This document shows, one piece after another, positions 1-64,000 of a stretch of 64,000 nt of DNA (positions are counted from its first letter, which is position 1; each line of letters opens with the position of its first letter). The DNA comes from a virus. Made by a program: the position numbers and the translations under genes. The stretch spans positions 1-64,000 of the IMG/VR virus record IMGVR_UViG_3300049617_000275; one strand, 5' to 3'. The notes beneath the pieces are model-generated. The model did not search any database, was not told the DNA's origin, and was given only the letters and a program-made list of their open reading frames with translations.

Positions 1-2
1 GC

Positions 3-233
3 CCTTGTTGCGGGAAAGAGTTCGCCGGAGGAGAGAAGTATTGTGATATTGATCTAAATCGCCTCGTTCTTCGAGACACAAAGAAGATCGAAGAGGAGTT
101 CGCTGCCGATTACAAACACCCTCTTCTTTCTCAACCGTGGTCTATACAGAATATATTGACACATCTGGGGGGAATCTCCCCCGGCGACGAGGGCTTTAAC
201 CTTCCTTTTGCGGATTACTTCGGTCCGGTGTAA
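3..233 (+). CDS. 3' end of a gene entering from upstream (partial)
   Basis: Frame 3 is open from the window edge to TAA 231-233. The translation is protein-like (...EEEFAADYKHPLLSQPWSIQNILTHLGG...). No start codon lies inside the window. Confidence 0.45.
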   Translation, partial: PCCGKEFAGGEKYCDIDLNRLVLRDTKKIEEEFAADYKHPLLSQPWSIQNILTHLGGISPGDEGFNLPFADYFGPV

Positions 234-351
234 AGATATTCCTGTTTTGCCCTGTATTCTCACGCGGGAATATGTGTTCTGTCAGGAAACAAACCCTCAG
301 ATACAATTTCCCTCGAACACCGCGACCTTTTCTAAGGGAGAAAATCTTTAA

Positions 352-951
352 ATGTCAAATCCTCTCGGCCAATGCGATATTGTGGGAAATTGGGTGACAG
401 CCCAGGACCTGCTTAATGCCTCAGCCAGTGCAAACGTGAATCCCTTGCTGGTCGCATCCGGAACTGGTCTTCCTGCAACCTATGTACCGGGAGCCGTTGT
501 GCTTACTGCGTCATGTACCTCCAACACTTTCCAAGTTCCGTATTCGGAAAATCTATTCTTACTTTGTTCCTTGGTATCCGGAACTGCTTCGGCTGCGATT
601 AATACTGGTTCAAACTTGACGGGTATTACAACCACCTCGATTGTGTATGTTACTCCTACAAACCCTGTTTGGACGTTGGTAGAAATTCCTTCTGCTGCGT
701 TGACTGCTACGACCAACCCCTCACCTGGACAACCTACAACTCCTTACTTCAACGTAAGCTTTGCAACCTCAGGATGTCAGATCAATCAACTTGCAGTCTT
801 GGACGTAGGATTCCTTGTTCCTAATGCCGACGACGCTGTAAACGTCCGAAGCGGAAAGAACGCCTACGCCTCCGGAGTTACCAACTCCTTCGATACACTC
901 AACCCTCCTACAAACCTTGTAGGTTCAGGTATGTTCTCGATAACTGCGTAG
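352..951 (+). CDS. hypothetical protein (199 aa), probably virion-associated
   Basis: ATG is preceded by an AAGGGAG Shine-Dalgarno. The protein is S/T/A/N-rich with no motif I recognise. A hairpin plus T-run follows. Confidence 0.65.
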   Translation: MSNPLGQCDIVGNWVTAQDLLNASASANVNPLLVASGTGLPATYVPGAVVLTASCTSNTFQVPYSENLFLLCSLVSGTASAAINTGSNLTGITTTSIVYVTPTNPVWTLVEIPSAALTATTNPSPGQPTTPYFNVSFATSGCQINQLAVLDVGFLVPNADDAVNVRSGKNAYASGVTNSFDTLNPPTNLVGSGMFSITA

Positions 952-989
952 CGTAACAGTTCCTTTTCTCCTCTGTTTCTCCTTCCCTC

Positions 990-1020
990 AAAAACCCTTT
1001 CTCCAAAGGGTTTTTGTTTT
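990..1020 (+). terminator. rho-independent terminator
   Basis: Hairpin AAAACCCTT-tctcc-AAGGGTTTT is followed by a T-run. Confidence 0.7.
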
Positions 1021-1061
1021 CTCTATGTAGAATAAGGGAGAAAACTCTGTAGGACTTCTCT

Positions 1062-2765
1062 GTGCCCAAGAAAAAGAAGAAAGGTAAATCCAAAACTCCG
1101 GCGGGGTTAAGTAAGGAACAGAAAAAGGTTTTCAAGGAAGATCCTGTTGCACTCAACGAAGCCGCGGTGGATCTGGGATTTGTAACTCGTGAAGAGGCGA
1201 TCCTAAATCTTCTTCCTGTGTCTCAGCGGAATTTCATAATTTCCGAGATCGAAAAGAAGTACGACACCGGCGTCTATACGGATGTTATGGATGCTTTTCG
1301 CAATCAAGCCCGTTTAGAATCTACGATAGACAGGGCTGTATCCTCCGCTCTTGCAAAGAAAGGAACGCCGGCGGGGGGTATATCCAAAGGTTTTCCCCTT
1401 ATCAATTCCTCTACCTCTATCCTGGGCTACGAACCCGCCGGGAGTGTCTTGAGGAAGCTCTATCCTAATCCTTTTGCGGTCTACAGTTTCATAGGTAACA
1501 ATCACTGGGCAACACTCCTGGCCCGCTCCCGGTTTCGTTGCGACGTTGCAAGAGATGGGTGGGTACTGGTAGCTCCGGAGGGAGTATCCAAGAAGCTTAT
1601 AAAAAAAGCCTATGTTGCACTTAACGATCTCTATGTAGATGATCTCCTCCTCAACGGCTCAGACATGTTGAATGTGTACGGGAATGTTTGGCTGGACAGA
1701 GATAGAAACCTTTTAGGAGGTCTCCGTGGAATTCAAATCTTGCTTCCGGAGAAGATCCTCCCTATTCTAGATACCTATGGAGATTACGTCTTAGGGTGGG
1801 AGTATATTATCGGAAACAAGCGTTTCTACTTCAACCTCGGAGAAATAGACCACCTCAAGACTTACAATCTGCGTAGTCTTCAGCTTGGAAATCCCCAACT
1901 AACATCTGTTGTTGTAGATGTGGAAGCGGATCTATATGCTTCTATATACGCTAACATGATGTTCCAAAAGGGTGGACTGGTAAGGGCAATTGTGTCCCTG
2001 GGCGACACTGCTTCTCAAACGGACTCCGGCGATGTTCATGCTTTGAATCCTGAAGTGCAACTGCACTTCTCCCAGCAGGTTTACGAAATGTTTGCTCGCC
2101 AATACTCAGGCGTCCGCGGAGCAAACCAACTTACCTTTCTCCCCAATGTAAAGGGCGTGTACCCCATTACAAATCCGAAGGATCTAGAAGGTCCTTACAA
2201 GGAAACCTCCGATCGTACTGCGATCAAGGTCTCTCAACTCCTCGGAGTGAGCCCAAGGAGAGTTGGGATTCACACAACTACCCAATACGAAAACAAACAG
2301 GCTGTAGAGGATTCAGAGCAGCTTGCAGATGATAATTGGCGTTACTACATTACAAACATTATGTTCAATTATATTAATTCCATTGTGATGAGAAATTATC
2401 TGGAAATAGACGGAGTTCAAATGAAGTACTCCGGCGAATATTCCTCAATTTGCCTATCCGCGGCGGAGTTCGGAGCAAACATTGCTCAAATGTCCTGCAA
2501 CTCTATTACCGTAGATGAATTTCGTACACGTATCCTGCATTGGGAAGCGTTAGGAGGTCCAGACGGAGCCGAGTTCATAGGAAATGTGGCTAACAAAGCT
2601 GCTCTGCTCAAGAACGCAGGCAATGCTGCTTCCAACAAGGATCTTGCAAAAGTAGAGGAATATCTCCAAAAGGCTGTAGGCCCCAAGCAACGTCTATATG
2701 TTAACGACTACGAGGGAAGGAAAGACCTTGTTGTCTACCATCCTCGCGACATACGATTTTGGTAG
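1062..2765 (+). CDS. portal protein candidate (567 aa)
   Basis: GTG start and a Lys-rich N-terminus. Size and position upstream of the prohead protease/scaffold and capsid genes fit a portal. The family is not verifiable by eye. Confidence 0.6.
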   Translation: MPKKKKKGKSKTPAGLSKEQKKVFKEDPVALNEAAVDLGFVTREEAILNLLPVSQRNFIISEIEKKYDTGVYTDVMDAFRNQARLESTIDRAVSSALAKKGTPAGGISKGFPLINSSTSILGYEPAGSVLRKLYPNPFAVYSFIGNNHWATLLARSRFRCDVARDGWVLVAPEGVSKKLIKKAYVALNDLYVDDLLLNGSDMLNVYGNVWLDRDRNLLGGLRGIQILLPEKILPILDTYGDYVLGWEYIIGNKRFYFNLGEIDHLKTYNLRSLQLGNPQLTSVVVDVEADLYASIYANMMFQKGGLVRAIVSLGDTASQTDSGDVHALNPEVQLHFSQQVYEMFARQYSGVRGANQLTFLPNVKGVYPITNPKDLEGPYKETSDRTAIKVSQLLGVSPRRVGIHTTTQYENKQAVEDSEQLADDNWRYYITNIMFNYINSIVMRNYLEIDGVQMKYSGEYSSICLSAAEFGANIAQMSCNSITVDEFRTRILHWEALGGPDGAEFIGNVANKAALLKNAGNAASNKDLAKVEEYLQKAVGPKQRLYVNDYEGRKDLVVYHPRDIRFW

Positions 2766-2889: not shown

Positions 2890-3078
2890 GTGAAAAGTTT
2901 TAACCGTAAGGTCCATAAAGGAAGCAAACAGGAACCGCAGATTCTCAAGAAGGTTGCGGAGGAAAAATCCTCTGTGCTCTCTTCCATAGAAACGATGATG
3001 AGAGATCTAGAGGAAGCCGGAGTGATAGCTCCCGGCCTTGTTTCCCCTACTGTAAACCTCGCGCCGGAGAAGAAGTAA
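2890..3078 (+). CDS. small hypothetical protein (62 aa)
   Basis: GTG start. The ORF is charged and helical-looking and sits immediately upstream of 3080. Confidence 0.45.
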   Translation: MKSFNRKVHKGSKQEPQILKKVAEEKSSVLSSIETMMRDLEEAGVIAPGLVSPTVNLAPEKK

Positions 3079-3079: not shown

Positions 3080-3553
3080 TTGATAAACACATACGTCATT
3101 TCTCCCGCAGCCCCCGTGACACTTACTTCTTCTGCTACGGCTAACATAGATATTCGCCTAAACAGTCTAGACGATATAAAGTTCTTCTTGAACCAAACCT
3201 GGCCGTCAGGATGTGGATCTACAACAGGTATTGCAGTTAACCTCTATCCGGGTTGGGGAGCGGCAGATCCCGCGGAGATCAAACTTCCTATTCCTTATGT
3301 CCTTTCTAACCCTGCGTCTGCAAACGTCTCTACAGTTCCGCAATTTTCTACCAACTATGCTCCGGTTCTTAACCAATCCGGAGGGAGTGCAATTGCTAAC
3401 CCTCCGGCGAACTCTTCCGCAGGAACTTCTACTACAACCGCCTTCTATCTGAATGCTGTGAATATGATTTGGACAAGCTGGATGAGGATGCAGATAGTGA
3501 ACCTAGATTCCGCTCACCCTGTCAAGATCTACCTTAACGCGGACTTATATTAA
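3080..3553 (+). CDS. hypothetical structural protein (157 aa)
   Basis: TTG start lies directly after the previous stop, with GGAGAAGAAG upstream. The protein is S/T/N/A-rich and precedes the fibre gene. Confidence 0.6.
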   Translation: MINTYVISPAAPVTLTSSATANIDIRLNSLDDIKFFLNQTWPSGCGSTTGIAVNLYPGWGAADPAEIKLPIPYVLSNPASANVSTVPQFSTNYAPVLNQSGGSAIANPPANSSAGTSTTTAFYLNAVNMIWTSWMRMQIVNLDSAHPVKIYLNADLY

Positions 3554-3568
3554 CCGCCGGAGGTATAA

Positions 3569-6500
3569 ATGTACGGATTTTACAACGGATACCCCCTTTT
3601 TGGCGGCACTTCGGGTTCTTCTGGAGGCGGGGGAGCAGATGTTGATGGCTACTATGTCCTCACACAATCGGATGCTGGTCTTCCCAACTCTTCTGTACTA
3701 ACTCCGGGCGTCGGTATTGCAATAAATGTAAGCGGCGGACTTTGCACAGTTTTGAATACGGTTTCTGGTTCAGGAACCGGCAGTGTTACTTCGTTTTCCG
3801 CGGGTAATCTTCAGCAATTATTTACCACTTCTGTTGCAAATCCCAATTCCACTCCTGCTCTTACTTTCTCTCAAATATCCCAAAACGGGAATCTTATATA
3901 CGCCTCTCCCTCCGGAGGAGCGGGCAATCCTTCCTTTAGGGCTCTCTTGGGTCCAGATCTGACATCCGCTCTCGAAGCCGGAAACAATATAACTCTTACT
4001 TCTAACGGCTCAGCGCTGTTGATTGCAACGGTTAACTCCGGCACGGTGTTTTCAGTAGGGCTTTCTATGCCTTCTATCTTCACAGTAGGAGGAACAAACC
4101 CAATCACAGGCTCGGGGAGTTTTAATGTAACTCTTGCAAACGAAAATGCAAATCTATTCTTTGTCGGCCCCGCTTCCGGCTCCTCCGCAGGACCTACATT
4201 CAGAGGGATTGTAGGAAACGATATTGTAAATGCCTTGATTGCGGGATCTGGAATCACTCTTGTCAACCAGGGCTCTGCCATCCTTGTTTCTTCTACAGCT
4301 ACTTCTTCTTCCTCCGGGACAGTAGCTTCGGTCTCCTGTACTTCTCTTTCTCCGCTGTTCTCTACAACGGTTGCAAATGCTTCTTCCACTCCGGCGATAT
4401 CTTTTACTCTAACTCCGCAAGCTTGCGGAACATTTCTTCGAGGTCCTTCCGCCGGAGCAAATGCTGCCCCCACTTTCGGAGGAGTTACCGGCAATGACCT
4501 CTCCGGAGTCCTGATCTCAGGAACAAACTCTTCTGTGGTCAACAACGGTTCTACAATCCAGGTCAACGTTCCTAATGCCCTTGGGGGCACAGTGACCTCT
4601 GTAACCGTTCACGGCACTCCGGAGATGTCTTCAGCAGGAAATCCTATAACAGGATCAGGTACTGTTCAGTTAGGATGGAATAGTGAGTCTGCCAACCTTT
4701 TTATGGCTGCTCCTTCTGCCGGTTCAGGAATTCCAGGATTTCGTGCTCTTACAGGAAACGATCTTGTTGGGGTACTTGTTGCCGGTTCAGATATCCAACT
4801 TACAAACAACGGGTCTACTCTTACAATAACAGCTTCTGCCCCCTCCGGCGGGAGTTCGGGAACCGTTACTTCTGTTGCAATGTCTGTTCCTCCTGCTCTT
4901 CTTTCGCTCACAGGATCGCCCATTACAGGAGCGGGGACTCTAGCAGTCAGTCTTGTAAATGCTTCTTCTACAACACTGTGGGCAGGACCCTCGGCCGGAG
5001 CTGCGGGAAGTCCTGGATATAGAGGACTCACAGGAAATGACATTCCCTTGGTTTCGGGAACAAACACGACCGTGGTCAACAATGGAGCTACGCTCCAGAT
5101 CAATGTTCCTTCTCCTTCTTATCCTGTAACAAGTGTAAGCAACTCAGATGGAACCCTTACAATTTCTCCTTCTACAGGAGCTGTTGTAGCGTCTATTGCG
5201 AACTCCGCTGCCCTGCCTGGGTCGCCTACCACTACTACCCAAAGTAGCACAGATAATTCAACAAAGATTGCAACAACCTCTTACGTTACAACTGCTGTTG
5301 CAAATGCAATTGCAGGAGTAAATCCCGCTGTTGCCGTACAAGTTGCAACCGTTTCCTCTTCTGACACCTCAGGACTTACTTACAACAACGGAGTCTCCGG
5401 GGTCGGAGCCACTTTCACTGGATCGACAAATACTGCTCTGACCTTCGATGGGGTAACCTTAACGTCGTTAAACCAACGTGTTCTTGTAAAGAACGACACT
5501 CAAAGTGGGAATCCTGGAGCATACAATGGAATCTACACTTTAACCCAACTCCAAACTGTTGGATTACCTCCTATACTCACACGGGCTGTGGATTACGATC
5601 AGCCCTCAGATATAAACAACACCGGCGCAATACCTGTTGTTTCGGGAACGGTAAATGCTGATACGAGTTGGTTGCTAACTTCTACCGTAGCTACTGTAGG
5701 AACAAGTGTTCTTACTTACACGCAGTTCACCTTAAATCCATCAAGTATTGTAACTGGAGCAGGTAACTTAACTCCTTTATTCACTACTTCTACTTCTGGA
5801 AATACTATTTCATTTAGTCTAACTAACGCCTCTGCGCATACAGTTTATTGTAATACTTCTGGAAGTTCTGCTGCTCCTGGGTTTAATGCTTTAACATTAA
5901 CTGCTGGAAATGGATTAACTGGAGGAGGTAATATAACAACCTCACCTACAGTTTCTGTAAGTCTTGGTGGAAGCTCTACTTATACTTCCGGAGCGTTAGT
6001 ATATGCTTCTAGTACAACAGCTTTAAGTGGATTAGCCCCAACTAATGGTGGAGTTTTAAGCTGTGCTTCAAGTATTCCTGTTTATTCATCTGCTGGATCT
6101 TCCGGACAACTATTACAATCTAATGGAACAAGTGCTCCATCTTTTACAACTAATACATGGCCTTCTACAGATACTAAAGGTGATTTAATTTATGCTTCTG
6201 CAAATAATCAAATTGCTGGATTAGCTATTGGTGCTACTAACTCTTTCTTAATTAGTAATGGAACTCTTCCAGTATGGACTTCAGCACAGAATGCACTTAA
6301 TGAATTAGCATCGGCTGGCGGCACCCCTACAAATGGACAAACGCTAATCTACAGTTCAGCAACTGAAAATTGGACTCCTGGTTCTGGCAGCATAATTCCT
6401 TCTGGCGAGGTTGGAGGAAGAATATATCTTGTATCTGGATCTCCGCTTGTAGACGGAGCCTCCGGAGGCAATTCAACAATATACTACGGGCCTTATACAT

Positions 6501-7237
6501 CCAATGTGGTAACAATCGGAGGAACTACTCAAACCTTTTCTGAAGCTTCTCTAGCTCTCTCCACTTCTGCCTCGGCATATTGGGTATATGTAAAATCCGC
6601 CGGAACAAGTTCTATAAGTCTAGGAACAGCGGCTTGGACAAATAATACAACTCCCTCTACTACCTACTCTCTTAACGGACAGATATATGCTGACTCCGGG
6701 CACACAGAACTTATTGTAGGAGGTATATATTGCCCCTCCGCTTCATCTACCCAAGACTGGCCAGGAGCTAGATGTATAAGTAATATCTATAATCCTATTC
6801 ATAAAATCTTAAGTGCTGTAGAAACATCTTCAAATTGGTCTACAAGCAGTGCTTCATGGAGTACTATGAATGGCTCTACAACTATCGGCACTCAGAGAGT
6901 AATAGTCTTTTGTACTATACCCACACCGGTAAATATAGAAACTAAAGTAAATATGTTTATGAGTAATCAAGGAAATATTTTCTCCGGACTTTTAGGATTA
7001 GCTTTAGATAGCGTATCTGTTTCTACTGCAAAGAGTGTAGTATTTGGCTATAGTTATCCCGGAGGACCTCTAAACGCTTCTGTCAGCACTAACTTAGTGG
7101 GTTTTCACTATTTTCAAAATCTACAAGCAGCCACTGACTCCGGAACTGCTACTTTTTATGGAGGTACGGGACAAGTAAATAGTGCTGGTCCCTCGGACGG
7201 ATATAACTGCTATATGTTAGGGAATGTGTTTTGCTAA
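3569..7237 (+). CDS. tail fibre protein (1222 aa) built from tandem repeats
   Basis: ATG follows a CCGCCGGAGG Shine-Dalgarno. There are at least five repeats of about 90-100 aa (GTVTSV..NPITGSGT..ANLF.AGPSAG..P.FR.LTGNDL). A DNSTKIATTSYV motif typical of phage tail fibres follows. The C-terminal part is AT-richer. Confidence 0.85.
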   Translation: MYGFYNGYPLFGGTSGSSGGGGADVDGYYVLTQSDAGLPNSSVLTPGVGIAINVSGGLCTVLNTVSGSGTGSVTSFSAGNLQQLFTTSVANPNSTPALTFSQISQNGNLIYASPSGGAGNPSFRALLGPDLTSALEAGNNITLTSNGSALLIATVNSGTVFSVGLSMPSIFTVGGTNPITGSGSFNVTLANENANLFFVGPASGSSAGPTFRGIVGNDIVNALIAGSGITLVNQGSAILVSSTATSSSSGTVASVSCTSLSPLFSTTVANASSTPAISFTLTPQACGTFLRGPSAGANAAPTFGGVTGNDLSGVLISGTNSSVVNNGSTIQVNVPNALGGTVTSVTVHGTPEMSSAGNPITGSGTVQLGWNSESANLFMAAPSAGSGIPGFRALTGNDLVGVLVAGSDIQLTNNGSTLTITASAPSGGSSGTVTSVAMSVPPALLSLTGSPITGAGTLAVSLVNASSTTLWAGPSAGAAGSPGYRGLTGNDIPLVSGTNTTVVNNGATLQINVPSPSYPVTSVSNSDGTLTISPSTGAVVASIANSAALPGSPTTTTQSSTDNSTKIATTSYVTTAVANAIAGVNPAVAVQVATVSSSDTSGLTYNNGVSGVGATFTGSTNTALTFDGVTLTSLNQRVLVKNDTQSGNPGAYNGIYTLTQLQTVGLPPILTRAVDYDQPSDINNTGAIPVVSGTVNADTSWLLTSTVATVGTSVLTYTQFTLNPSSIVTGAGNLTPLFTTSTSGNTISFSLTNASAHTVYCNTSGSSAAPGFNALTLTAGNGLTGGGNITTSPTVSVSLGGSSTYTSGALVYASSTTALSGLAPTNGGVLSCASSIPVYSSAGSSGQLLQSNGTSAPSFTTNTWPSTDTKGDLIYASANNQIAGLAIGATNSFLISNGTLPVWTSAQNALNELASAGGTPTNGQTLIYSSATENWTPGSGSIIPSGEVGGRIYLVSGSPLVDGASGGNSTIYYGPYTSNVVTIGGTTQTFSEASLALSTSASAYWVYVKSAGTSSISLGTAAWTNNTTPSTTYSLNGQIYADSGHTELIVGGIYCPSASSTQDWPGARCISNIYNPIHKILSAVETSSNWSTSSASWSTMNGSTTIGTQRVIVFCTIPTPVNIETKVNMFMSNQGNIFSGLLGLALDSVSVSTAKSVVFGYSYPGGPLNASVSTNLVGFHYFQNLQAATDSGTATFYGGTGQVNSAGPSDGYNCYMLGNVFC

Positions 7238-7668
7238 TGTCCGCATACTCACAAATTTTATTTTTGAATACTTATACGGCTTCCGGATGTGTAGGATGCA
7301 ATGGAGATCCTAACTGTGTAGATCCAGGTCCTTACGGTCTCATATATGTAGAAGGAACAGATCTTTCTGTACAGGCACAGATACTTACTGCCGCCGAGAG
7401 TTTCGATTGGAATCAAACTCCTCCTCCAGTGCCTAACATTGCAGGACTTATAGCCGCTGTAAAGACAGAACCTACCTTCAATGCACAAATAAGAACTGGA
7501 CTCGGGGGTCTATGTGCGACTCTTCTCGCAACAGGAATTACCTATGCTCAGCAGGAATACAACGATGCCGTAGAGACATACGGTAGTACTTGGCTTACTC
7601 CGGCGGTTCAGGCCACTCTCCTTGCATACTTTGTACAGTTTAACATCCCCATTGTGGCTGCTTCGTAG
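7237..7668 (+). CDS. hypothetical protein; fibre assembly chaperone by position only
   Basis: ATG overlaps the fibre stop (TAATG). The product is 143 aa and the gene lies immediately downstream of the fibre gene. Confidence 0.55.
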   Translation: MSAYSQILFLNTYTASGCVGCNGDPNCVDPGPYGLIYVEGTDLSVQAQILTAAESFDWNQTPPPVPNIAGLIAAVKTEPTFNAQIRTGLGGLCATLLATGITYAQQEYNDAVETYGSTWLTPAVQATLLAYFVQFNIPIVAAS

Positions 7669-8741: not shown

Positions 8742-9520
8742 CAATGCAGATAGTTTTGGTCCACGGTATCCTCGAAACAGATTCCTCTGCCGAGGTCCTT
8801 ATAAAGGATTGGTGTTTTAACCCCCAAGGATATATAAAACCTACAACCCGTGTCTCCGCGGCGTTCTGGGGAGATTTATCTTCTGCTCAAGAAAAGAAAA
8901 CACTCCGAACTTCTTGGGGAGACAAGATAGAAGATGGGGTCTACAAAGCTGCCACAAACAATTCTCTCCTCAAGGACTGCTACAACTACTTTTACAACGA
9001 GGAACTCCGGGCGGAAATACAGCAGAGATTCTTTTCCTGTATTGCGGCAATGTCCCCCGGAGACGACGTATGCATTATTTCCCACTCCCAAGGTACGGTA
9101 ATTGCTTACGAATGTCTCCTCAAAATGGAATTGGGAACAGCTCCGGCGCTTCCCGTAGTTAACTTCACAAACCTTATTACTATCGGAAGCCCCCTAGGTT
9201 TAGAGCAGATGCGGGCGGAGTTAAGAACTGCAAACAGTATTCCCAAGCTGCACATTCCCAAGAATGTTTGGAAGTGGGAGAACTTCAACGACATCCGAGA
9301 TCTTGTTGCAGCAGTACATAAGATATCTTCTCTGTACCCTGTAAAACAGGACAAGCTCGGTCCGGAGACAAATCCTTCCTTTGTTTACCCTATACAGGAT
9401 ATCCAGGTCGTAAATCCATGGACTCCGGCGGACGGAGGATTTTTCTTTCACGACATCGATACTTACCTCCAAGTTCCTGTTATCCGGGATACTATCCGCG
9501 CAGCACAGGGATTGCATTAG
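8738..9520 (+). CDS. alpha/beta-hydrolase (lipase/esterase-like serine hydrolase)
   Basis: ATG overlaps the previous stop (ATGA). It has VLVHGI near the N-terminus and a GxSxG-type nucleophile elbow, IISHSQGT. Confidence 0.65.
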   Translation: MTMQIVLVHGILETDSSAEVLIKDWCFNPQGYIKPTTRVSAAFWGDLSSAQEKKTLRTSWGDKIEDGVYKAATNNSLLKDCYNYFYNEELRAEIQQRFFSCIAAMSPGDDVCIISHSQGTVIAYECLLKMELGTAPALPVVNFTNLITIGSPLGLEQMRAELRTANSIPKLHIPKNVWKWENFNDIRDLVAAVHKISSLYPVKQDKLGPETNPSFVYPIQDIQVVNPWTPADGGFFFHDIDTYLQVPVIRDTIRAAQGLH

Positions 9521-16587: not shown

Positions 16588-16592
16588 GACAC

Positions 16593-50814: not shown

Positions 50815-50952
50815 CTCGCGTCCCTCCCAATTGCTTACCTTATTATATTAGCGTATAAGCTAATAACTTGGTGCTATTTGAACAATCATTTAACTATCTA
50901 CTTTTTCCTACCGAACTGAACATTTACACAATAGAGGAAACTCCGGCGGGTG

Positions 50953-55084: not shown

Positions 55085-55341
55085 ATGTTTTCTTTCCTCG
55101 GTTTGCGTATTGTTGTTCGGTCTATATTTCTGTAGCGGTCACTCCATTCAGGAGCTTGCCATGGTTTATCTCTATCTGCGTGCTTACGCTGATTCTCGTT
55201 GCGGTGGTATTTGCAGTAGGAACAGCTTATCCTCCCTTTGTTCGCAAGTTTAAATTTATACAGTTTCTTCCAGGCATAAGAAGAGGAAGTTTCTTCAAAA
55301 TCATGACTCCGCCGGAGTCTGTAGACTTCTTCTCTGTACAC
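55051..55341 (-). CDS. small basic protein (96 aa)
   Basis: ISCSYCKYHRNEN is present. It overlaps the next gene by 34 nt. Confidence 0.45.
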   Translation of the reverse strand: MYREEVYRLRRSHDFEETSSSYAWKKLYKFKLANKGRISCSYCKYHRNENQRKHADRDKPWQAPEWSDRYRNIDRTTIRKPRKENICLPVDLPKNS

Positions 55342-56654: not shown

Positions 56655-57031
56655 TAGCGGAAGTCCTCGGACTCGGGCGTGGCTATATATGGAACAGATA
56701 CTTTCTGTAGACCGGATACATACGGACAAAGATCTGTACTTACAAACCCCGCAATCTCACATACAAGTTGAAGTATCTCTACTACCTCATTCATGTTTAC
56801 TCCGGCGGTTGCTGTGTCTACAGTTCCTAAGACCTGCTCCGGCGCGGTGTGGAGCAAAGAAAACTTGTAAAGCTCGGCGGAGATAGAAAGCTGCTTTGTT
56901 CCTCTGTTCGGAAGAGTCTTTGCTTCCAAAATATCCAAAAGATCCAGCAATTCTGTCTTTTGAGGGGAAGAAGAGATCAATTTCCAGATCTCTGCAAGGT
57001 TAGGAAGGTTAGGGAGTTGAAGATTATCCAA
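56654..57031 (-). CDS. hypothetical protein (125 aa)
   Basis: TTG start with an AGAGGA Shine-Dalgarno. Confidence 0.55.
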   Translation of the reverse strand: MDNLQLPNLPNLAEIWKLISSSPQKTELLDLLDILEAKTLPNRGTKQLSISAELYKFSLLHTAPEQVLGTVDTATAGVNMNEVVEILQLVCEIAGFVSTDLCPYVSGLQKVSVPYIATPESEDFR

Positions 57032-57414: not shown

Positions 57415-57729
57415 TTATTTCTTCTGTACCACCTGTTCTGTACGGTAATGGGAGTAACGGAGTTCTATACGGAAAGGTTTCTCCGCCGATGCGTATCGCG
57501 TTGTTTCCCGGACATCTTCTGCATAGGAAGAGAGGAAATCTCCGTCTTTGTGCAGGTAGGAATTCACAATGTCGAAGGTGTCCTCGGAATACTCCGGGTC
57601 GTCTTCTGGCAGAGCATATCCTACAAGCCTCAGATTGTCCAGTGCAATTACATACTTCTTGAGCACCGGCGGTCTCTTCTTTTCTGTGTCCTCCGGAGAA
57701 GAGGAGAAAGTAATGTTGTCTTCTGTCAA
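57415..57729 (-). CDS. hypothetical protein (104 aa)
   Basis: It overlaps the previous gene by 4 nt. Confidence 0.5.
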   Translation of the reverse strand: MTEDNITFSSSPEDTEKKRPPVLKKYVIALDNLRLVGYALPEDDPEYSEDTFDIVNSYLHKDGDFLSSYAEDVRETTRYASAEKPFRIELRYSHYRTEQVVQKK

Positions 57730-58250
57730 TTTAATACTCCTAGCAATTCAAGTACTTTATCCACTACTGTGTCTCCGGCCGGAACCTTTTCGAACGGGAG
57801 CTCGAGATCCTCTAATAATTCCCAAATTCTGTAATCTAACTTCCTGGCTTCTCCCTCGGTTTGGTTTCTCCCTATGGGATCGTACTCGTAATCGTTATTT
57901 CGCCTAATAAATATATTTATAGCGTCGTAAGAATTCCACATTTCCATAACCAAAGGCTTAAAAGACGAAAAATATTCTGGTTGAGAATATATAAGCCCAA
58001 AGGGAAGAGCGGTATCTGTTACAAGGTATTCGACTCCGTGTCCTTCATGCCTACAGTAAATCCGATTCTGTTTTGCAAGGATATAGACCTGATCTGCAAG
58101 AGCCTCAAATCTTTTATCGAAAGTTAGTTGTTTGGCATACTCCGGACAATATTCCGTTCGCTTTCCCAGTTTTTTGAGAGTTGCCGCAAGATCCAATGCA
58201 GCAGTAGACTTACCTACTCCCGGCCCCCCCCAAAAAGATATTATCTTCAA
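57726..58250 (-). CDS. P-loop NTPase/kinase-like protein (174 aa)
   Basis: TTG start with a GGAAGAGGAGAG Shine-Dalgarno. The Walker A GGPGVGKST lies at residues 8-16. The EYAK...LVTDT layout resembles small nucleotide/nucleoside kinases. Confidence 0.6.
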   Translation of the reverse strand: MKIISFWGGPGVGKSTAALDLAATLKKLGKRTEYCPEYAKQLTFDKRFEALADQVYILAKQNRIYCRHEGHGVEYLVTDTALPFGLIYSQPEYFSSFKPLVMEMWNSYDAINIFIRRNNDYEYDPIGRNQTEGEARKLDYRIWELLEDLELPFEKVPAGDTVVDKVLELLGVLN

Positions 58251-58252
58251 AT

Positions 58253-58684
58253 CTATCTCTCCTCTTCCTTTATAGCAGGCATACGGGTTACGCTTATGAA
58301 GATATCTTCTTCTCCGGGCATCTCTGCAAGTTTCTCCGAAATTATCTTTCCGATTGTGCAGGAGCACTTCTCTTGAAGAACCTCCGCCGGGAGTTTCCCT
58401 TCTCTTCCTGTCTGCTCCCAAGCCTCTGTCAGAGTCTGCGGAAGTCTTTCTGTGCCTTCTTCTGATCTCTGCGCCAACTCGGATATCATTGCCGGAAACC
58501 ATCCTACTACCATCATGAGGAATACGAACCCCCGAGCCCAGGGGGTGTTAAGGACCCCCGCCGCTTCGAAAGGAACATCCTCGGGATGGGCGGAGAGATA
58601 TTTCCAAAGCATGGCGGCAAAAGTAATTCCCATGGATATATAAGTCACAGCAAAGGTTGTAAGTACAAGATTCAGGTATTCCAC
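58253..58684 (-). CDS. membrane protein (143 aa, two TM helices)
   Basis: LVLTTFAVTYISMGITFAAML and FVFLMMVVGWFPAMI are present. Confidence 0.55.
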   Translation of the reverse strand: MEYLNLVLTTFAVTYISMGITFAAMLWKYLSAHPEDVPFEAAGVLNTPWARGFVFLMMVVGWFPAMISELAQRSEEGTERLPQTLTEAWEQTGREGKLPAEVLQEKCSCTIGKIISEKLAEMPGEEDIFISVTRMPAIKEEER

Positions 58685-58916: not shown

Positions 58917-59202
58917 TTAATTCTCCTTGGTTCTTTCGGGCTGAGTACTTATGTGGTAACCTACACAGAAACTACATTTGTATATACGGGCTCCGGGGCG
59001 GAGGTATCCTTTCTTTCTCCCCCGCTCGATCTCTTCTGCGGCATTCTTTTCAAACCGGAAGAACTTCTTCGAAGTACAGGATTTGTACTCCCAATGCCCT
59101 TCTTCCGGAAGAAACTTCTCAATAAGGAAAGAAACTCCTTTGTCCAGAGGTTTGGCGGAGTGAGGGATCTTTCCGTAAATACTACTACTTCCTTTTTGCA
59201 TT
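58917..59202 (-). CDS. small basic protein (94 aa) with a C..C..H motif
   Basis: The internal ATG (MQKGSSS) overlaps the end of the glycosyltransferase gene. YKCSFCVGYH is present. Confidence 0.45.
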
Positions 59203-60159
59203 TTTCCTCTCCTTTCGGGAAACTTTTGGTCTGCGTCTGGGTTTATGTACAAAGAAATCCTGTATCTTCTCTGGCGTCCAACTTGCAAAGTCTCTTAGAG
59301 GAATGCACAGTTCTTTGTCCAAGAAGTCGTGGTCTACATACAGAGACTCCGGCTGACCGTTCCAAATCTTCAAAAACTCTTGATCGTGCATCTTTGTGTT
59401 CTCTCCGAACACCCTATCTAGATTCAACTCCCCGCCGGGGTAGGATTGATAGTTGATCTCCGAGTCTTTTATATATTCCAGACTCTTCTTCAAAGTTGGG
59501 AAGTGCTTGGGATCATACCCTTGAACTCTCAAAGCCCGCCGGGAGAGATCCGAATGCTCCCCTCCGTAGAAGTAGGGAAACTTCTTCATATATCCGATTT
59601 TTTGGAGCAGTTTACGGGAGAACCACATCATCTGCCCTATGCAGCCGGGATGCCAACGCAAATCTTTGCTCTCAGCTTGAAAAGGGAAAGAGATTTGAAG
59701 TCCTTCTCCTATGTATCCTAGGATATGCTCCTGTTCCTCTCTCCGGCCGACATCCGCGAGATACGAAAGTAACCCTCTCTTTATGAACTCTACATCGTTA
59801 TCCATGAGAAGCAGGAAGTCAGCATCCGATTTCTTTAGGAAGTAGGATATTACTCTATTCTTGTTTGCCCAAATCCCGTTTGTATTTCCTGTAAGATAGG
59901 CTCCAGAGACAATATTTGTCTTTACCGTATCCCAAGCATCTCCCGGGGAGTCATCAGCTATTACCACATCCCAATCATGGCCTAATTCTGGACCTAAACA
60001 AACTCCCCCTTCTCCTAAGTTCAGACAGGAACGAAGAAAGCGCAGGAGAACATCGTTTTTCTTGTAGGTGGTAACTCCTATGAGAGTTTTAGGAACTTCA
60101 TTTGACACCGGCGGTCCCTCGTAGTTCCTGGCTTTGCAGATAAATCTTCTCCATCTCAT
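59185..60159 (-). CDS. family-2 (GT-A fold) glycosyltransferase (start uncertain; GTG 60108 is the alternative)
   Basis: LIGVTTYKKND...VVIADDSPGD, LLLMDNDVEF (DxD) and GGEHSDLSRRA are present. Confidence 0.7.
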   Translation of the reverse strand: MRWRRFICKARNYEGPPVSNEVPKTLIGVTTYKKNDVLLRFLRSCLNLGEGGVCLGPELGHDWDVVIADDSPGDAWDTVKTNIVSGAYLTGNTNGIWANKNRVISYFLKKSDADFLLLMDNDVEFIKRGLLSYLADVGRREEQEHILGYIGEGLQISFPFQAESKDLRWHPGCIGQMMWFSRKLLQKIGYMKKFPYFYGGEHSDLSRRALRVQGYDPKHFPTLKKSLEYIKDSEINYQSYPGGELNLDRVFGENTKMHDQEFLKIWNGQPESLYVDHDFLDKELCIPLRDFASWTPEKIQDFFVHKPRRRPKVSRKERKNAKRK

Positions 60160-60663: not shown

Positions 60664-61242
60664 TTAGGCAATGTGCATCTCCTTGTTCCATGTGTAACGC
60701 CTGCCAGAAAGAATTCCTACAAACTCCTCCGGGCGGCTTCCGGAGGGAAGGTTCCACTTTACTCCAAACTTGACTACGTCCTGAGGGTTGCGTAAGTTCT
60801 CTATCTCTGCTGCAATAAGTTCATTCAGTGTAGCATAGTTTTGGGGAGAAAACACAGCATTTATACTTTCTTCATAAATTGTTTTGCGAAGCAGGAAATC
60901 GGGAAGAAACATATTTTCCCGAAAGACATTATCCATTTTTCCTATTCTCCGCAGATCTCCTATCTTTACAGTAAGGGAGACCCCGGCGCCCTCTATGCGA
61001 ACAAGCTCGTTTTCCGCGATCCACTGCGAAATCCGTAGAGTATCTACAAGAAAGTTAAGAGCATCTGCCGGGCGGAGCCGCCGGAGAGAAGGAAAGATAT
61101 GCTGTCCTCCGGTCTTAGGAAGAGCACAGGGAACAAGTACCTCTTCCTCTAGGTCCCGTAAGGGGTTTGCAAGGGAAAGAACTGTATCTCCGTGTTCTGC
61201 CGGGCAGATGTTATCGTTCTCTTCTGTTCGTAGAATGTACAT
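60664..61242 (-). CDS. hypothetical protein (192 aa)
   Basis: Long ORF in the minus array. Confidence 0.55.
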   Translation of the reverse strand: MYILRTEENDNICPAEHGDTVLSLANPLRDLEEEVLVPCALPKTGGQHIFPSLRRLRPADALNFLVDTLRISQWIAENELVRIEGAGVSLTVKIGDLRRIGKMDNVFRENMFLPDFLLRKTIYEESINAVFSPQNYATLNELIAAEIENLRNPQDVVKFGVKWNLPSGSRPEEFVGILSGRRYTWNKEMHIA

Positions 61243-61549
61243 TTACTCTCCTTTGGCACTTTTTTATGAACTCTGCGGCAATGGGAACAAGCCTTTTGTC
61301 CGTAACGCGAAGTCGTGTTCTCTCCGGACATTCAGGAGTATCAAACTCTCCACCGTAACACTTGCATAACCCCGGACGGTTGTCTTGGAATACATATGCA
61401 AGGACTTTTACAGGCTTTGTTTGAATAAGTTCCAGGTTCCATCCTGTATTTAAAACCATGGACTGATAATATATGAAGATACTTTCCAGGTCTTTGGATT
61501 TGCCGCGGAGTTTATACCTTTTCTGATCCGCGCTTCTTATCGCATACAT
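61211..61549 (-). CDS. hypothetical protein (112 aa)
   Basis: ATG is coupled to a 40-aa upstream mini-ORF (TAAATG). Confidence 0.5.
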   Translation of the reverse strand: MYAIRSADQKRYKLRGKSKDLESIFIYYQSMVLNTGWNLELIQTKPVKVLAYVFQDNRPGLCKCYGGEFDTPECPERTRLRVTDKRLVPIAAEFIKKCQRRVNVHSTNRRER

Positions 61550-61691
61550 TTAAACCGAACCTGGCGGTCCCATTACAAGATCTTTATACTTCTCTAGGAG
61601 AAGGTTATACCGTCTGGCATGTAAATTCCAAGCGTCGAATATTTCCGGAAAAATAAACTTTGCAATCCTCATTCTAAATTTGTATATCAAT

Positions 61692-62243
61692 CTACTCTCC
61701 TTTCAAAACAATCGGCGGGCCGCAATCGGAGCGAAGCTTGCAGGCAGTGTCTACTGCATCGAAAGCAAGATCCCAAAGCTCCTCTTTTGTATGTGCTTTA
61801 CTGTACCCATATTCCAGAACTGCCCTACATATATCTCCTCCGCTCCCGGCTACTACGTAGCGGGAGGACTCTACACAGAATCCGTAGGGATCAGGATAGA
61901 AAAGTCCGGAGTCGGAAACAATGATAACATCGAACTCCGGCGGAGGATCTGCACACACAGAATACATCTTGTCTGCAACGATGGACTGGAAACGGTTAGC
62001 ATCCTCTACCCCCCGCATCTCCAAATACTTTGCTTTTGAGTTCAGAAGCGAGTATACACAGTGCTGGACTGCCATATTCGTTCCCGCATAAAGAGCTGTA
62101 AATCGAGGAAATATACAGTACTTCTTCGAATTTGAAAGCTCGAAGATCTCGTCGCCGGAGCAAATCCGGGAGTCACAAGCCCAAACAGTATATGCACATT
62201 CTTCCCGAGGGAGGTATTTTCTAACTGCACATATCGCTGTCAA
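61692..62243 (-). CDS. HslV/proteasome beta-subunit-like Ntn hydrolase
   Basis: TTG start gives an M-T-A-I-C-A-V N-terminus (Thr1). ACDSRI is the Asp17 equivalent and SKKYCIF the Lys33 equivalent. YAGTNMAV and VVAGSGGDICRAVLEYGY align with the HslV/20S beta motifs. Confidence 0.7.
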   Translation of the reverse strand: MTAICAVRKYLPREECAYTVWACDSRICSGDEIFELSNSKKYCIFPRFTALYAGTNMAVQHCVYSLLNSKAKYLEMRGVEDANRFQSIVADKMYSVCADPPPEFDVIIVSDSGLFYPDPYGFCVESSRYVVAGSGGDICRAVLEYGYSKAHTKEELWDLAFDAVDTACKLRSDCGPPIVLKGE

Positions 62244-62703
62244 GGCTTGTCTCCGGATGCTCTTGGAAAGAGCGGCTGCTTAACAGTGTTCCTGCCATCT
62301 CGTCTATGAGAATCTCTGTCTTCTTCTCCGGCGAGAGAAGTTCGTGGAGTTTAGATTCCAGAGCTTTAAGCCTGTTCTGTTCGTTCTGGCGGTCCAGAAC
62401 TGCGATCTTGGCCCTTAGATCTGTCAGCCAATCCTGCAAAGAGAATCCTCCTATTGTCGGACTCAATCCGAGTTCGTAAGCGGACTGTTGAAAAGCATTT
62501 ACCTCCACCGCCAAAAGAGATAGATCGTTTACCGAACAGCAGGTATGTAGATTTACCGCTCTTCCAGTTGAATCTAGATCCAGAGAGCAGTGGGTAACGG
62601 GAACAAACTTCTCGCTCCGCGCCAGTCCCTTCTTTTTCTCCTCTATCTGTTTCTTGAGTTGAAGAATGCGGGAGTCGTTGTTAGTATTTCTTTTCGTTGC
62701 CAT
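62221..62703 (-). CDS. hypothetical protein (160 aa)
   Basis: Basic N-terminus and a coiled-coil segment. Confidence 0.55.
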   Translation of the reverse strand: MATKRNTNNDSRILQLKKQIEEKKKGLARSEKFVPVTHCSLDLDSTGRAVNLHTCCSVNDLSLLAVEVNAFQQSAYELGLSPTIGGFSLQDWLTDLRAKIAVLDRQNEQNRLKALESKLHELLSPEKKTEILIDEMAGTLLSSRSFQEHPETSLDSDMCS

Positions 62704-62831
62704 TCTGTAAAAATCTCCGTTCTATTGTAAAGTTGAATTGCTCATGTAGTTCCGGAAACAATGGAAAACACTTTTTCTTTCAGCAAAAAGGGAAGGTCCG
62801 GAACAGTTCCAGCGACTCCCATCTCCTGATC

Positions 62832-63455
62832 TTAAAATCCATATCTGGGATCTGCGAAACTCCGTTTTGGGGTCAGTGGGGTAACAAGATCTTTTGCCTT
62901 CACGGACGTGCGGGAGTTGAGTATCTCCGAAAAGTCCTGTATTGAAGAGAACTCCGGCGCCCCCTCTGGGATCAGCGTCAGCTCTGTTCCTTCCCACCCA
63001 TATACAAACTTCCCTTCCAGTCCTTTTCCTTTGATAGAGTTCGTGTGCTGGAGAATGTAAAGGAGGTTAGGTAGGGTTATCTCAAACTCAAAGCCGCGAG
63101 GATCAAAGACACGGGCATAGGCTGTAGGTTGCACCGCCGCCCGAGTACAGAACTCAATGGCTTCTGCAAGGTTCAAAGAATTTACACTCCTTATAGGATA
63201 TGTGCTCATGTCCTGTCGGAAACTCCCCCAGTCGTTGGCGTAGCCTCCTACTTTTTTGTTGAGGACAAATCCTTCTGTAGGAGAGTTATCAAACTCCTGA
63301 GGCTCAATATTCCTGTCTCTCCAACTCTGCCACCCTTTCTCCTTCTTGAGAACTCCTTTAGGACCAAAATAGATCACGTAAGCAAGCTTGCCGGTGTAGG
63401 TTCCGCTTCGGTTTTGAAACCCTACTTTGAGTTTCTCGGGTATGTATACAGGCAT
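62832..63455 (-). CDS. hypothetical protein (207 aa); source of the fragment at 57051-57139
   Basis: ATG overlaps the helicase stop. No motif recognised. Confidence 0.6.
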   Translation of the reverse strand: MPVYIPEKLKVGFQNRSGTYTGKLAYVIYFGPKGVLKKEKGWQSWRDRNIEPQEFDNSPTEGFVLNKKVGGYANDWGSFRQDMSTYPIRSVNSLNLAEAIEFCTRAAVQPTAYARVFDPRGFEFEITLPNLLYILQHTNSIKGKGLEGKFVYGWEGTELTLIPEGAPEFSSIQDFSEILNSRTSVKAKDLVTPLTPKRSFADPRYGF

Positions 63456-64000
63456 TAAAACAACTCCGCAATAAGGTTTCGTAAAGGAATTTCACTTTTC
63501 TTTCCGTCTAAAATGTTAGCAGAATCCGCATACTTTTGCAAGATCTTCCGTAGGATCTGTTTTTCCCGTGTTCCTTCGGCAGTCAGGAAGAAAGTATTCG
63601 TGTCCTGGGTTTGGGTAAGACGGGAAACCCTGTCTCGGGCCTGGAATATCACATCTGCATCCGGATCAAAAGAAGAATATATGGAAGTGTTAGCTCGGGG
63701 AAGGTTTATTCCCAGCCCGCTCTTTCTGCTATGTGTTCCTGAGAAAATCAGGGCTCCGGCGGGAGCAAAGGGAAAGTCCGGATAGAGCTTCTTGAGGCGT
63801 GCAAACTCTCTTTCTTCGTCTTCATTCCGAAGACCTTGGAAAGCCCATACCGCGAGTTTCTGCATTCCTTCAGACACCGCGCCGGAGTAAACAACAGCAT
63901 GTTTAGGAAACTTCTCCTGTACAAGGCGGGTTATACGTTCGAACCTACTCCAATGCACAATGGGCTCTCCCCTCTCTATGTGTTCCTTGAAAGTTTCAAA
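63455..64000 (-). CDS. SNF2-family helicase, C-terminal part (gene continues beyond the window)
   Basis: Motif V/VI region: LIFSGTHSRKSGLGINLPRANTSIYSSFDPDADVIFQARDRVSRLTQ. The frame is open to the window edge. Confidence 0.8.
   Translation of the reverse strand, partial: FETFKEHIERGEPIVHWSRFERITRLVQEKFPKHAVVYSGAVSEGMQKLAVWAFQGLRNEDEEREFARLKKLYPDFPFAPAGALIFSGTHSRKSGLGINLPRANTSIYSSFDPDADVIFQARDRVSRLTQTQDTNTFFLTAEGTREKQILRKILQKYADSANILDGKKSEIPLRNLIAELF

Follow-up and report, generated by a model that had tools for sequence, protein, structure and literature searches.

The DNA analyzed here comprises positions 1 to 64,000 of the IMG/VR virus record IMGVR_UViG_3300049617_000275 (hereafter the window), which comes from an uncultured tailed phage with a genome of 108 kb. 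The window contains 72 exact copies of an asymmetric octamer, CTCCGGCG (CGCCGGAG when read on the other strand), and this excess is real, highly significant and not explained by coding. Judged from sequence, CTCCGGCG is best described as the recognition word of a putative DNA-acting protein, driven in one phage lineage to a density like that of the uptake signal sequences (USSs) of Pasteurellaceae or of HIP1, the iterated octamer of cyanobacteria.

CTCCGGCG is enriched at the level of DNA

An exact search located 42 copies on the plus strand and 30 on the minus strand, precisely the numbers at which a preliminary description of the window had put its approximate tally, and most of the positions listed there were correct to within a few bases. 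The window has a G+C content of 46% with no strong skew, from which ~1.2 copies are predicted; the observed density of 1.1 per kb amounts to a 61-fold excess, within the 15- to 300-fold range of HIP1. Dinucleotide-preserving shuffles of the window gave 1.29 copies, with a maximum of 4. A count against a codon-preserving null, as suggested in the preliminary description, was obtained by shuffling synonymous codons within each open reading frame (ORF) of at least 80 amino acids, with the proteins, the codon usage of each gene and all non-coding DNA held fixed; 93 ORFs were called, covering 88% of the window. This null yielded 16.6 ± 2.1 copies compared with the 72 observed (z = 27), and because 12 of the 16.6 are the fixed non-coding copies, the contrast within genes is ~60 copies against ~5 expected.

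Between 83% and 86% of the copies lie inside ORFs, where they are found in all six frame classes (sense f2, 19; f1, 13; f0, 4; antisense f2, 11; f1, 11; f0, 2), and the other 12 are non-coding. The non-coding share is proportional, with 10-12 of the 72 copies in the 12-17% of the sequence that is non-coding. A by-product of coding, arising from a dipeptide or codon-pair preference, or alternatively the spread of a small mobile repeat, is scarcely credible as the origin of the word. The favored frames do encode Ser-Gly, Pro-Ala, Ala-Gly and Pro-Glu, the rare ones are the only two that would encode Arg-Arg, and a few copies are insertions. Synonymous shuffling, however, removes more than 90% of the genic copies, and together with a codon-permutation shuffle it rules out a codon or dipeptide artefact. 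The earlier proposal that the signal belongs to the DNA and is not a dipeptide artefact was thus borne out by the shuffle, by the occupation of all frames and both strands, and by the non-coding copies. CTCCGGCG is not a dispersed element either, as no two copies have related flanks; mobile elements and larger repeats, such as repetitive extragenic palindromic sequences, miniature inverted-repeat transposable elements and GC clusters, were rejected on the grounds that the flanks are uninformative beyond ~15 nt and that the copies are mostly within ORFs.

An assembly artefact was ruled out by two independent Logan contigs (run SRR18649394), which matched 12,765 and 6,060 bases of the window with 0 mismatches and carried the same copies of CTCCGGCG. 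The same portal protein is recorded in NCBI, ENA and JGI on a 108,371-bp contig. Eight more copies were found in the 8.9 kb upstream of the window, some of them inside an intein-bearing terminase gene.

CTCCGGCG is the peak of a graded, asymmetric site

When 8-mers were masked iteratively and scored against the codon-preserving null, CTCCGGCG reached 13.7, compared with 7.9 or less for every other 8-mer. One-substitution neighbors at positions 1, 3, 4 and 5 were at null level (32 vs. 31.1), whereas those at positions 2, 6, 7 and 8 were enriched (140 vs. 53); positions 1, 3, 4 and 5 are therefore intolerant and positions 2, 6, 7 and 8 tolerant. The one-off variants mentioned in the preliminary description proved to be real: CACCGGCG occurs 23 times against 6.6 in the null, CTCCCGGCG, an insertion variant, 18 times against 3.9, and CTCCGGCA (equivalent to TGCCGGAG) 16 times against 6.7. 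Over the whole window (1-64000), the variant family also includes CTCCGCCG (30 copies) and CTCCGGCC (13 copies), and the palindrome CTCCGGAG has 17 sites. The hexamer CTCCGG was counted 254 times compared with 106 in the null, and CTCC followed by four G/C bases 253 times compared with 82 (z = 27).

Preferences extend beyond the octamer. A is preferred at -1 (30/72 copies), T is found at +6 in 40/72 copies (P = 3e-7), and T is found at +1 in just 3/72 (P = 8e-7), so that the earlier remark that the ninth base is never T was nearly right. Both T signals recur in each of the frame classes as well as among the non-coding copies and are therefore a property of the DNA, not of codons. These data indicate that the site is asymmetric and ~15 nt long, a-CTCCGGCG-g-N4-T, and that CTCCGGCG is the peak of its graded matrix.

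A general drive towards CCGG was considered and rejected; the CCGG excess of the window (+145) is wholly accounted for by CTCCGG contexts.

Copies are spread along the window irrespective of strand

The strand split of 42:30 is not significant (P = 0.19), with 31:21 in the plus-strand gene block and 11:9 elsewhere, and neither is the orientation relative to genes (36 sense, 24 antisense; P = 0.16). No orientation flip, strand switch or end clustering was seen along the 64 kb. Spacing is near-Poisson and not periodic (index of dispersion 1.29), with gaps of up to 5.9 kb. The preliminary description had drawn attention to regions depleted of the word. Copy-free gaps do exist (4850-7598, 38662-42076 and 45063-50941), but their non-randomness is only marginal (P = 0.07 for the largest gap, 5,885 nt; P = 0.047 for the count of gaps spanning 2.7 kb or more), and variants of the family still occur inside them. 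With only these marginal statistics behind it, the idea that the gaps are horizontally acquired islands was rejected.

A minority of copies double as a Shine-Dalgarno site or form part of mini-palindromes or of an inverted pair. The overlap with Shine-Dalgarno sites that had been proposed was confirmed at 3555-3562 (minus), where the word is the Shine-Dalgarno site (ccgccggagg-N5-ATG) of a 1222-aa ORF, at 19165-19172 (minus), upstream of an ATG at 19182, and at 42886-42893 (minus; cccgccggagg-N5-ATG). Sixteen copies continue straight into (G/C)GGAG to give mini-palindromes; the copy at 12478-12485 (plus) extends to CTCCGGCGGAG, and that at 25494-25501 (minus) lies inside the palindrome GGACTCCGGCGGAGTCC. 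A role as hairpin or terminator was rejected, given that CGGAG follows within 25 nt downstream in just 8/71 copies (7 upstream) and that there is one clear intergenic inverted pair. This pair, at 51968-52012, is a perfect 10-bp inverted repeat (CTCCGGCGGG-N25-CCCGCCGGAG) in the spacer between two minus-strand genes; its left arm contains the copy at 51968-51975 (plus) and its right arm the copy at 52005-52012 (minus), and it could be a structured element.

Several other copies are distinguished by their location. The copy at 1096-1103 (plus) encodes part of Thr-Pro-Ala in the portal gene, and three are in the tape-measure gene (27641-27648, minus; 28451-28458, plus; 30266-30273, minus). Those at 16485-16492 and 50941-50948 (both plus) are non-coding, and that at 16592-16599 (minus) overlaps the 5' end of a tRNA-Thr gene (16593-16665). 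The copy at 38655-38662 (plus) is the sole one in an orphan 1042-aa ORF, and that at 45056-45063 (plus) is the last before the 5.9-kb gap. The other plus-strand copies lie at 7598-7605, 9141-9148, 9423-9430, 11276-11283, 12830-12837, 16120-16127, 17029-17036, 17978-17985, 21122-21129, 22285-22292, 25447-25454, 25999-26006, 31623-31630, 31828-31835, 33552-33559, 33996-34003, 35075-35082, 38121-38128, 42076-42083, 43237-43244, 43947-43954, 56800-56807, 56837-56844, 61935-61942, 62326-62333, 62952-62959 and 63754-63761, and the other minus-strand copies at 23-30, 3062-3069, 10344-10351, 11000-11007, 11677-11684, 15279-15286, 19866-19873, 24270-24277, 33660-33667, 33912-33919, 34499-34506, 37999-38006, 42145-42152, 43664-43671, 44815-44822, 51351-51358, 51682-51689, 55310-55317, 61079-61086, 62153-62160 and 63880-63887. 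The copies whose origin could be followed in relatives are described below.

Copies arose mainly by substitution, at a cost to proteins

Proteins encoded in the window were aligned to those of five relatives, and orthologous codons were compared at the CTCCGGCG sites. At 3402-3409 (plus), CCA CCA GCA in relative L005 (CCACCAGCA) corresponds to CCT CCG GCG in the window, three synonymous changes that leave Pro-Pro-Ala unchanged. The copies at 4389-4396 (plus; ACTCCGGCA in L005) and 4450-4457 (minus; AGCCGGAG in L003) were likewise made by synonymous changes. Other copies altered the protein: at 10832-10839 (plus), D or E in the relatives is G here, and at 12071-12078 (plus), RDGQ in the relatives is DSGE here, both non-synonymous. 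Two such sites are in the portal gene. At 2429-2436 (plus), the relatives have TTCTCCGGGGAA, and an F-to-Y replacement plus a GGG-to-GGC change produced ACTCCGGCG. At 2024-2031 (plus), four relatives have D-D where the window has D-SG-D, the 6 nt TCCGGC having been inserted in frame; the copy at 4843-4850 (plus) similarly lies within an insertion relative to L005 and L003.

Across eight ortholog families from eleven genomes, runs of at least six G/C bases were 3.3-fold enriched in short lineage-specific insertions (P = 5e-8), for which loop composition (Gly, Pro, Ala, Ser) is a confounder. Because insertions contain only ~3% of the G/C-run codons, substitution is the main route by which copies arose. 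The pressure is strong enough to change conserved structural proteins, even the portal.

Relatives carry related words in lineage-specific dialects

Homologues of the portal protein with 28-68% identity were found on metagenomic contigs of up to 138 kb, and each relative was sampled over 10-21 kb. The exact word was present 0-1 times per 10-21 kb in relatives spanning 28-80% portal identity, compared with 28 times in the same region of this phage. The search of related phages proposed in the preliminary description had a divided outcome: exact CTCCGGCG is confined to this phage, and weaker related words are present in its relatives. CTCC followed by four G/C bases was enriched over the codon-preserving null in 10/11 genomes, by ~1.6x to ~4x. 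Among the relatives, observed and null counts were 33 and 11.4 in L005, 41 and 10.2 in L003, 43 and 11.5 in L007, 35 and 12.3 in L137, 26 and 7.2 in L138, 18 and 6.4 in L130, and 22 and 8.3 in L132; the enrichment was weaker in L002 (32 vs. 20.5) and L008 (34 vs. 20.3) and borderline in L133 (7 vs. 3.5). As controls, the prefixes GTCC, CTTC and TTCC showed no enrichment in most genomes, with the exception of L138 (22 vs. 4.3), whose own words begin with TTCC.

Each lineage has favored words of its own. CTCCCCG is enriched 3.6-4.6x in L002, L005, L003 and L007. L137 favors CCCCCGGG (8 vs. 0.4 in the null) and CTCCCCGG (6 vs. 0.3), L130 favors ACACCCGG (6 vs. 0.3), L132 favors CCCCCGC (10 vs. 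0.6), and L138 favors CTTCCGGC (9 vs. 0.5 in 10 kb), which is mostly within one 1313-aa ORF. All of these words are frame-independent, and none has a consistent, strong strand polarity. The cluster in L138 (4300-7900) combines the nine copies of CTTCCGGC, found on both strands, with six of TTCCGCGG, found on one strand only, and the 1313-aa ORF is the counterpart of the 1222-aa ORF of the window. CTCCGGCG is an extreme, sharpened local form of a clade-wide family in which CTCC or a pyrimidine tract is followed by a G/C run centered on CCGG or CCCG. In the nearest relatives the dialect is CTCCCCG. More distant ones use CCCCGGG, CCCCCGG or CTTCCGGC, and the phage described here has the much sharper and denser CTCCGGCG.

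Most relatives are strongly CpG-depleted, with observed/expected ratios of 0.27-0.60 for CG and of 0.1-0.6 in nearly all NCGN contexts. CCGG consistently escapes this depletion (1.2-3.6) and CCGC does so less consistently (0.5-1.5); L133 is an outlier (CG 0.69, CCGG 0.8, CCGC 1.7). In the window lineage, CpG depletion is relaxed (0.83) and CCGG stands at 2.6. The clade concentrates its CpG in words composed of a pyrimidine tract plus CCGG or CCCG, with dialects by lineage. CCCGGG is strongly avoided in the window (1 vs. 14.7), which effectively forbids there the C-run/G-run words of the distant relatives.

General oligonucleotide signatures follow a different pattern. The tetranucleotide signatures of L003, L007, L008, L137, L138, L130 and L132 (the B-like group) correlate with r = 0.77-0.91 despite portal identities of no more than 37-65%. 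A second signature group (A) consists of L002 and L005. Among the four genomes that favor CTCCCCG, r is 0.90 within A (L002 and L005), 0.88 within B (L003 and L007) and 0.65-0.67 between A and B. The window differs from all relatives (r = 0.46-0.71). Portal identity and signature similarity have a correlation of 0.05. Palindrome-avoidance spectra differ in the same manner; TCGA, CGCG and ACGT are purged in the B-like group and not in the window. These general signatures are most simply host-imposed, via restriction exposure and mutation bias. CTCCCCG, however, shows the same degree of enrichment in both groups, in L002 and L005 (signature A) as in L003 and L007 (signature B), and the portals of these four are mutually closest (64-80% identity). 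The word family thus follows the phage lineage, because portal kin share CTCCCCG across two host-type signatures.

Other compositional features of the window were noted. Many 6-bp palindromes are avoided (observed/null): ACTAGT 0/9.5, CGTACG 0/8.1, GCATGC 0/6.7, CTGCAG 1/24.5, GGATCC 1/22.3, CCCGGG 1/14.7, CTCGAG 1/11.4, GTCGAC 1/7.3, CAGCTG 2/14.5, GAGCTC 3/15.2, GGTACC 2/9.9 and GCCGGC 2/7.9. Such avoidance implies DNA that is unmodified and that encounters many Type II restriction systems. TTGCAA is enriched (53/21.8). Among tetramers, purine-run and pyrimidine-run words (CTTC, AGGA, CTCC, AGAA, AAGA) are enriched, and several words with off-frame stop triplets (ACTA, TTAA, CTGA, GCTA, ATGA) are depleted relative to the codon-preserving null.

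The phage belongs to a clade without a GenBank relative

The structural genes of the window include those for the portal (1062-2765), a prohead protease with scaffold-like sequence fused to it (10791-13088), the major capsid protein (13091-14308), whose orthologues match SU10_MCP, and a tape measure protein of 1503 aa. Four tRNA genes are scattered in the structural gene block: Thr-TGT (16593-16665), Glu-TTC (21673-21745), Gly-TCC (22066-22137) and Pro-TGG (32296-32369, minus). Upstream of the window is a helicase/NTPase of ~950 aa, whose orthologues in the relatives match archaeo-eukaryotic primase (AEP) domains weakly, and just upstream is the large terminase gene with its Hint/LAGLIDADG intein (L001, 6005-9172). 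The intein is present here and in some relatives (L003, L004 and L005; 1042-1055 aa), and other relatives have an intein-free terminase of 623-645 aa. A family-A DNA polymerase lies near these genes in the relatives. Unusual accessory genes encode a proteasome/HslV-like subunit, a Clp_N-domain protein, DUF5662, a GT2 glycosyltransferase, an AAA_28 ATPase and an S24 peptidase domain (61692-62243, minus; 9565-10194; 10202-10678; 59185-60159, minus; 57726-58502, minus; and 41987-42511, respectively); the S24 domain has no detectable helix-turn-helix (HTH) or other DNA-binding part. The tail-fibre-like 1042-aa ORF in the tail region (38470-41598) had no homologue but itself among 5.8 billion proteins. 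In 73 kb of the 108-kb genome, where most ORFs are unannotated, there was no detectable domain of an integrase, methyltransferase, Vsr, nickase or recombinase, and neither a recombination module nor a RecBCD inhibitor was detected.

Among 50,697 GenBank phages there was no megablast match, and no tblastn match for the portal or major capsid protein. Alignment of the portal to 185,579 species genomes revealed no relative and no prophage relative. Viral and genome collections were also scanned for paired CTCCGGCG sites, and the matches listed were only tandem repeats and GC-rich genomes. In three contigs of Parabacteroides sp. PF5-6 (L148, L150, L161), CTCCGGCG is inside a 21-bp tandem repeat unit, GGCCTTTTGGAAAACTCCGGC, and is not dispersed; in cyanobacterial and other genomes (L166, L235), it is in tandem units of ~25-33 bp containing CCTGTRACTCCGGCGTATAG. 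These tandem-repeat occurrences in bacteria are unrelated to the dispersed copies described here. A literature search for CTCCGGCG found nothing relevant.

A phage-encoded reader is tentatively favored

CTCCGGCG looks like a site that is read by a putative DNA-binding or DNA-acting protein, and a binding or modification site is the best general reading of the pattern. We infer that a protein reads the word, that this protein is phage-encoded, and what it does, whether nicking, binding or marking. In the mechanism we propose, CTCCGGCG would be the top-affinity form of the graded ~15-nt site for a sequence-specific DNA-acting protein, and the site would have accumulated genome-wide in this phage lineage through pressure on the DNA itself. 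The reader would act irrespective of site orientation and would most likely be phage-encoded, co-evolving with its sites so that each lineage of the clade acquires its own dialect. The nearest documented mechanism would be phage-encoded, site-specific nicking or marking of the phage's own genome, as in T5, phiKMV (CCTA/CTCCGG) and tf, and CTCCGGCG would be a private self-mark in this sense. We tentatively favor such a co-evolving phage reader over a signature imposed by the host, while holding it somewhat short of probable. It was ranked first mainly because CTCCCCG tracks the phage lineage across signatures, which is what a phage-encoded reader predicts, although this pattern is not decisive.

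Several observations weigh against a phage-encoded reader. No reader protein was identified, and nickase, methyltransferase, Vsr and recombinase domains were not detected in the 73 kb. Documented nick-site words occur on one strand only and in 4-14 copies. The CCCCGGG and CCCCCGG words of the distant relatives also fit their shared B-like signature group, as host tracking would have it, and the host phylogeny may run parallel to the phage phylogeny. The relatives, moreover, were sampled over just 10-21 kb each.

The alternative that we lean against least readily is a host with the same word throughout its genome, in the manner of the USSs, the DNA uptake sequences (DUSs) of Neisseriaceae or HIP1; the phage would have gained the word by amelioration, by recombination or through selection for recognition by a host protein, and the hosts of the relatives would carry different words or lack them. 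This is a live possibility, albeit one that we consider less than likely. The anatomy of USSs and DUSs fits CTCCGGCG best of all, with ~1 site per kb, neutral orientation, near-Poisson spacing, all frames occupied and protein changes tolerated, as well as a graded core with a flank consensus and dialects that differ between lineages. Phages do take up words of their hosts, and USSs reach ~0.75 per kb there in clade-specific dialects (PMC6776037). Phage phylogeny does not account for the general oligonucleotide signatures of these phages, which follow something else, and some words are common to distant phages within the B-like group. On the other hand, CTCCCCG is equally enriched in relatives of two different signature groups, and the USSs of Pasteurellaceae build up in temperate phages, whereas large lytic phages are USS-poor (PMC6776037). 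The present phage has PolA-clade relatives, a primase-helicase and tRNAs, with no integrase in 73 kb and an S24 domain lacking a detectable HTH. No genome with dispersed CTCCGGCG appeared among the matches listed in the genome scan, and no relative was found among the 185,579 species genomes.

A Chi-like hotspot, in which an octamer of the host RecBCD or AddAB system accumulates in a phage reliant on host recombination, has precedents in the lambdoid phages LLS and MD8. In MD8, the host Chi ranks first among octamers in frequency (32 copies) and a 7/8 variant is abundant too, and LLS has one Chi per 1.86 kb (PMC12315714); the functional determinant located 4-7 nt 3' of E. coli Chi (PMC5041463) also parallels the preference for T at +4 to +6 here. 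Chi is polar, however, with ratios of 20:3 and 32:0 in Chi-rich phages and clustering towards one end (PMC12315714), and the Chi-like behavior suggested in the preliminary description was not borne out by the 42:30 split, by the near-Poisson spread over 64 of the 108 kb, without a flip or end clustering, or by the favored words of the relatives, which lack any consistent, strong polarity. We regard this explanation as improbable, and a methylation-linked repair ratchet of the Dcm/Vsr or Elhai-HIP1 type as distinctly so. In such a ratchet, a cytosine methyltransferase and very-short-patch (VSP)-type repair would protect the CpG in the word and convert near-cognates to it, a model that exists for HIP1 (PMC5861425). 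Depletion of CpG in most relatives (0.27-0.60) with CCGG spared (1.2-3.6) is the pattern expected of a protected context, CTCCAG is depleted in the window (40 vs. 65; z = -3.4), and CTCCAGCG is missing from it (0 vs. 2.9 expected). The second transition derivative, CTCTGG, shows no depletion (33 vs. 36), the core-position one-off neighbors are at the null, CCAG/CTGG is depleted no more strongly than many other tetramers, TCCAG stands at 0.91, and TpG/CpA is not over-represented among the CpG-poor relatives. The contexts known for VSP repair span 4-5 bp, not 8-15, and no methyltransferase or Vsr was seen in 73 kb; with precursor depletion inconsistent, a deamination/VSP ratchet was not supported. 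Finally, the copies could be lagging-strand priming sites for the AEP-type primase-helicase of the clade, at about one per 1-2 kb per strand. This primase-helicase (~950-980 aa) is conserved beside the packaging genes in all relatives, and one copy of CTCCGGCG per 1.8 kb of each strand, with sites on both, is of the order of an Okazaki fragment. Yet known primase sites are 3-5 nt long and need no enrichment, and the spacing is irregular (index of dispersion 1.29, gaps to 5.9 kb) with no strand switch, so that priming seems very unlikely to account for the word.

The phage-encoded reader can be extended to the clade as a whole, a step that we regard as rather doubtful. In this extension, phages of ~110-140 kb would carry a private, genome-wide self-mark that evolves quickly, each lineage with its own short asymmetric word present hundreds of times on both strands, even where this alters conserved proteins, by which a phage enzyme would distinguish its own DNA from that of the host or of competitors, or process it. 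Such a self-mark could be a phage-owned counterpart of Chi and uptake sequences, and its dialects could enforce incompatibility between related phages.

Implications

Hyper-abundant words such as Chi, uptake sequences, HIP1, FtsK-orienting polar sequences (KOPS) and nick-site words have each led to a DNA-reading machine. CTCCGGCG is as dense and as sharp as these classical words and comes from a phage clade that has no cultured member and resembles no GenBank phage. If the finding holds, a phage-encoded reader would make this the first known phage to have recast its entire genome, together with its proteins, around a private word with lineage dialects. If the reader instead belonged to the host, CTCCGGCG would be a marker for host prediction and would point to an undescribed uptake-like, Chi-like or repair system. 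The confinement of CpG to CCGG-type words in the CpG-poor relatives stands as a compositional rule without explanation and could be checked in many more genomes.

Comparison with known systems

Like CTCCGGCG, the USSs and DUSs are asymmetric words found on both strands about once per kb, evenly spread and with neither orientation preferred; they occupy all frames at a cost to proteins, have a graded core with flanks, one-off variants and dialects, and are present in phages (PMC6776037). Unlike the USS-rich temperate phages, the phage carrying CTCCGGCG looks like a large virulent type, a class that is USS-poor in Pasteurellaceae. A further difference is that a word related to CTCCGGCG is common to relatives with different host-type signatures, and CTCCGGCG itself is known here from the phage alone.

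The stoperators of Cluster A mycobacteriophages, 13-bp sites present in ~25-35 copies, are oriented with transcription. They resemble CTCCGGCG in comprising dozens of asymmetric sites across a phage genome, within or near genes, and their reader is phage-encoded. CTCCGGCG differs in that it is not oriented with genes (36 sense, 24 antisense).

HIP1 (GCGATCGC) is likewise an over-represented octamer, present about once per gene in coding DNA; its function is still debated, with a ratchet of methylation and repair having been proposed (PMC5861425). The likeness to HIP1 and uptake sequences that the preliminary description pointed out holds statistically, as the density (1.1 per kb) and the ~60x excess are comparable, but membership of the HIP1 class does not. 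HIP1 is palindromic, quasi-periodic and a trait of a host phylum, whereas CTCCGGCG is asymmetric, aperiodic and limited to one phage lineage. Chi in LLS and MD8, which lack a Rec module, is a protein-recognition word with a density of 0.5-0.75 per kb and shares with CTCCGGCG its rank as the top octamer, abundant near-cognates and a 3' flank (PMC12315714, PMC5041463). Chi is polar and clustered towards one end, unlike the orientation-neutral and evenly spread CTCCGGCG.

The nick-site words of T5-like, phiKMV-like and tf/LUZ24-like phages number 4-14 sites on one strand, compared with 72 on both strands plus ~90 variants for CTCCGGCG. They share with it an asymmetric, G/C-containing sequence and over-representation far above chance, and their consensus sequences are group-specific (PMC3517423). 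These phage-autonomous words are 7-9-mers with tolerant and intolerant positions, and that of phage tf has 14 copies in 46 kb (PMC3517423). The phiKMV consensus, CCTA/CTCCGG, ends in A/CTCCGG, an exact match to positions -1 to 6 in the preferred version of CTCCGGCG (PMC3517423). By this comparison, nick-site words appear to be the only documented phage-autonomous analogue of CTCCGGCG.

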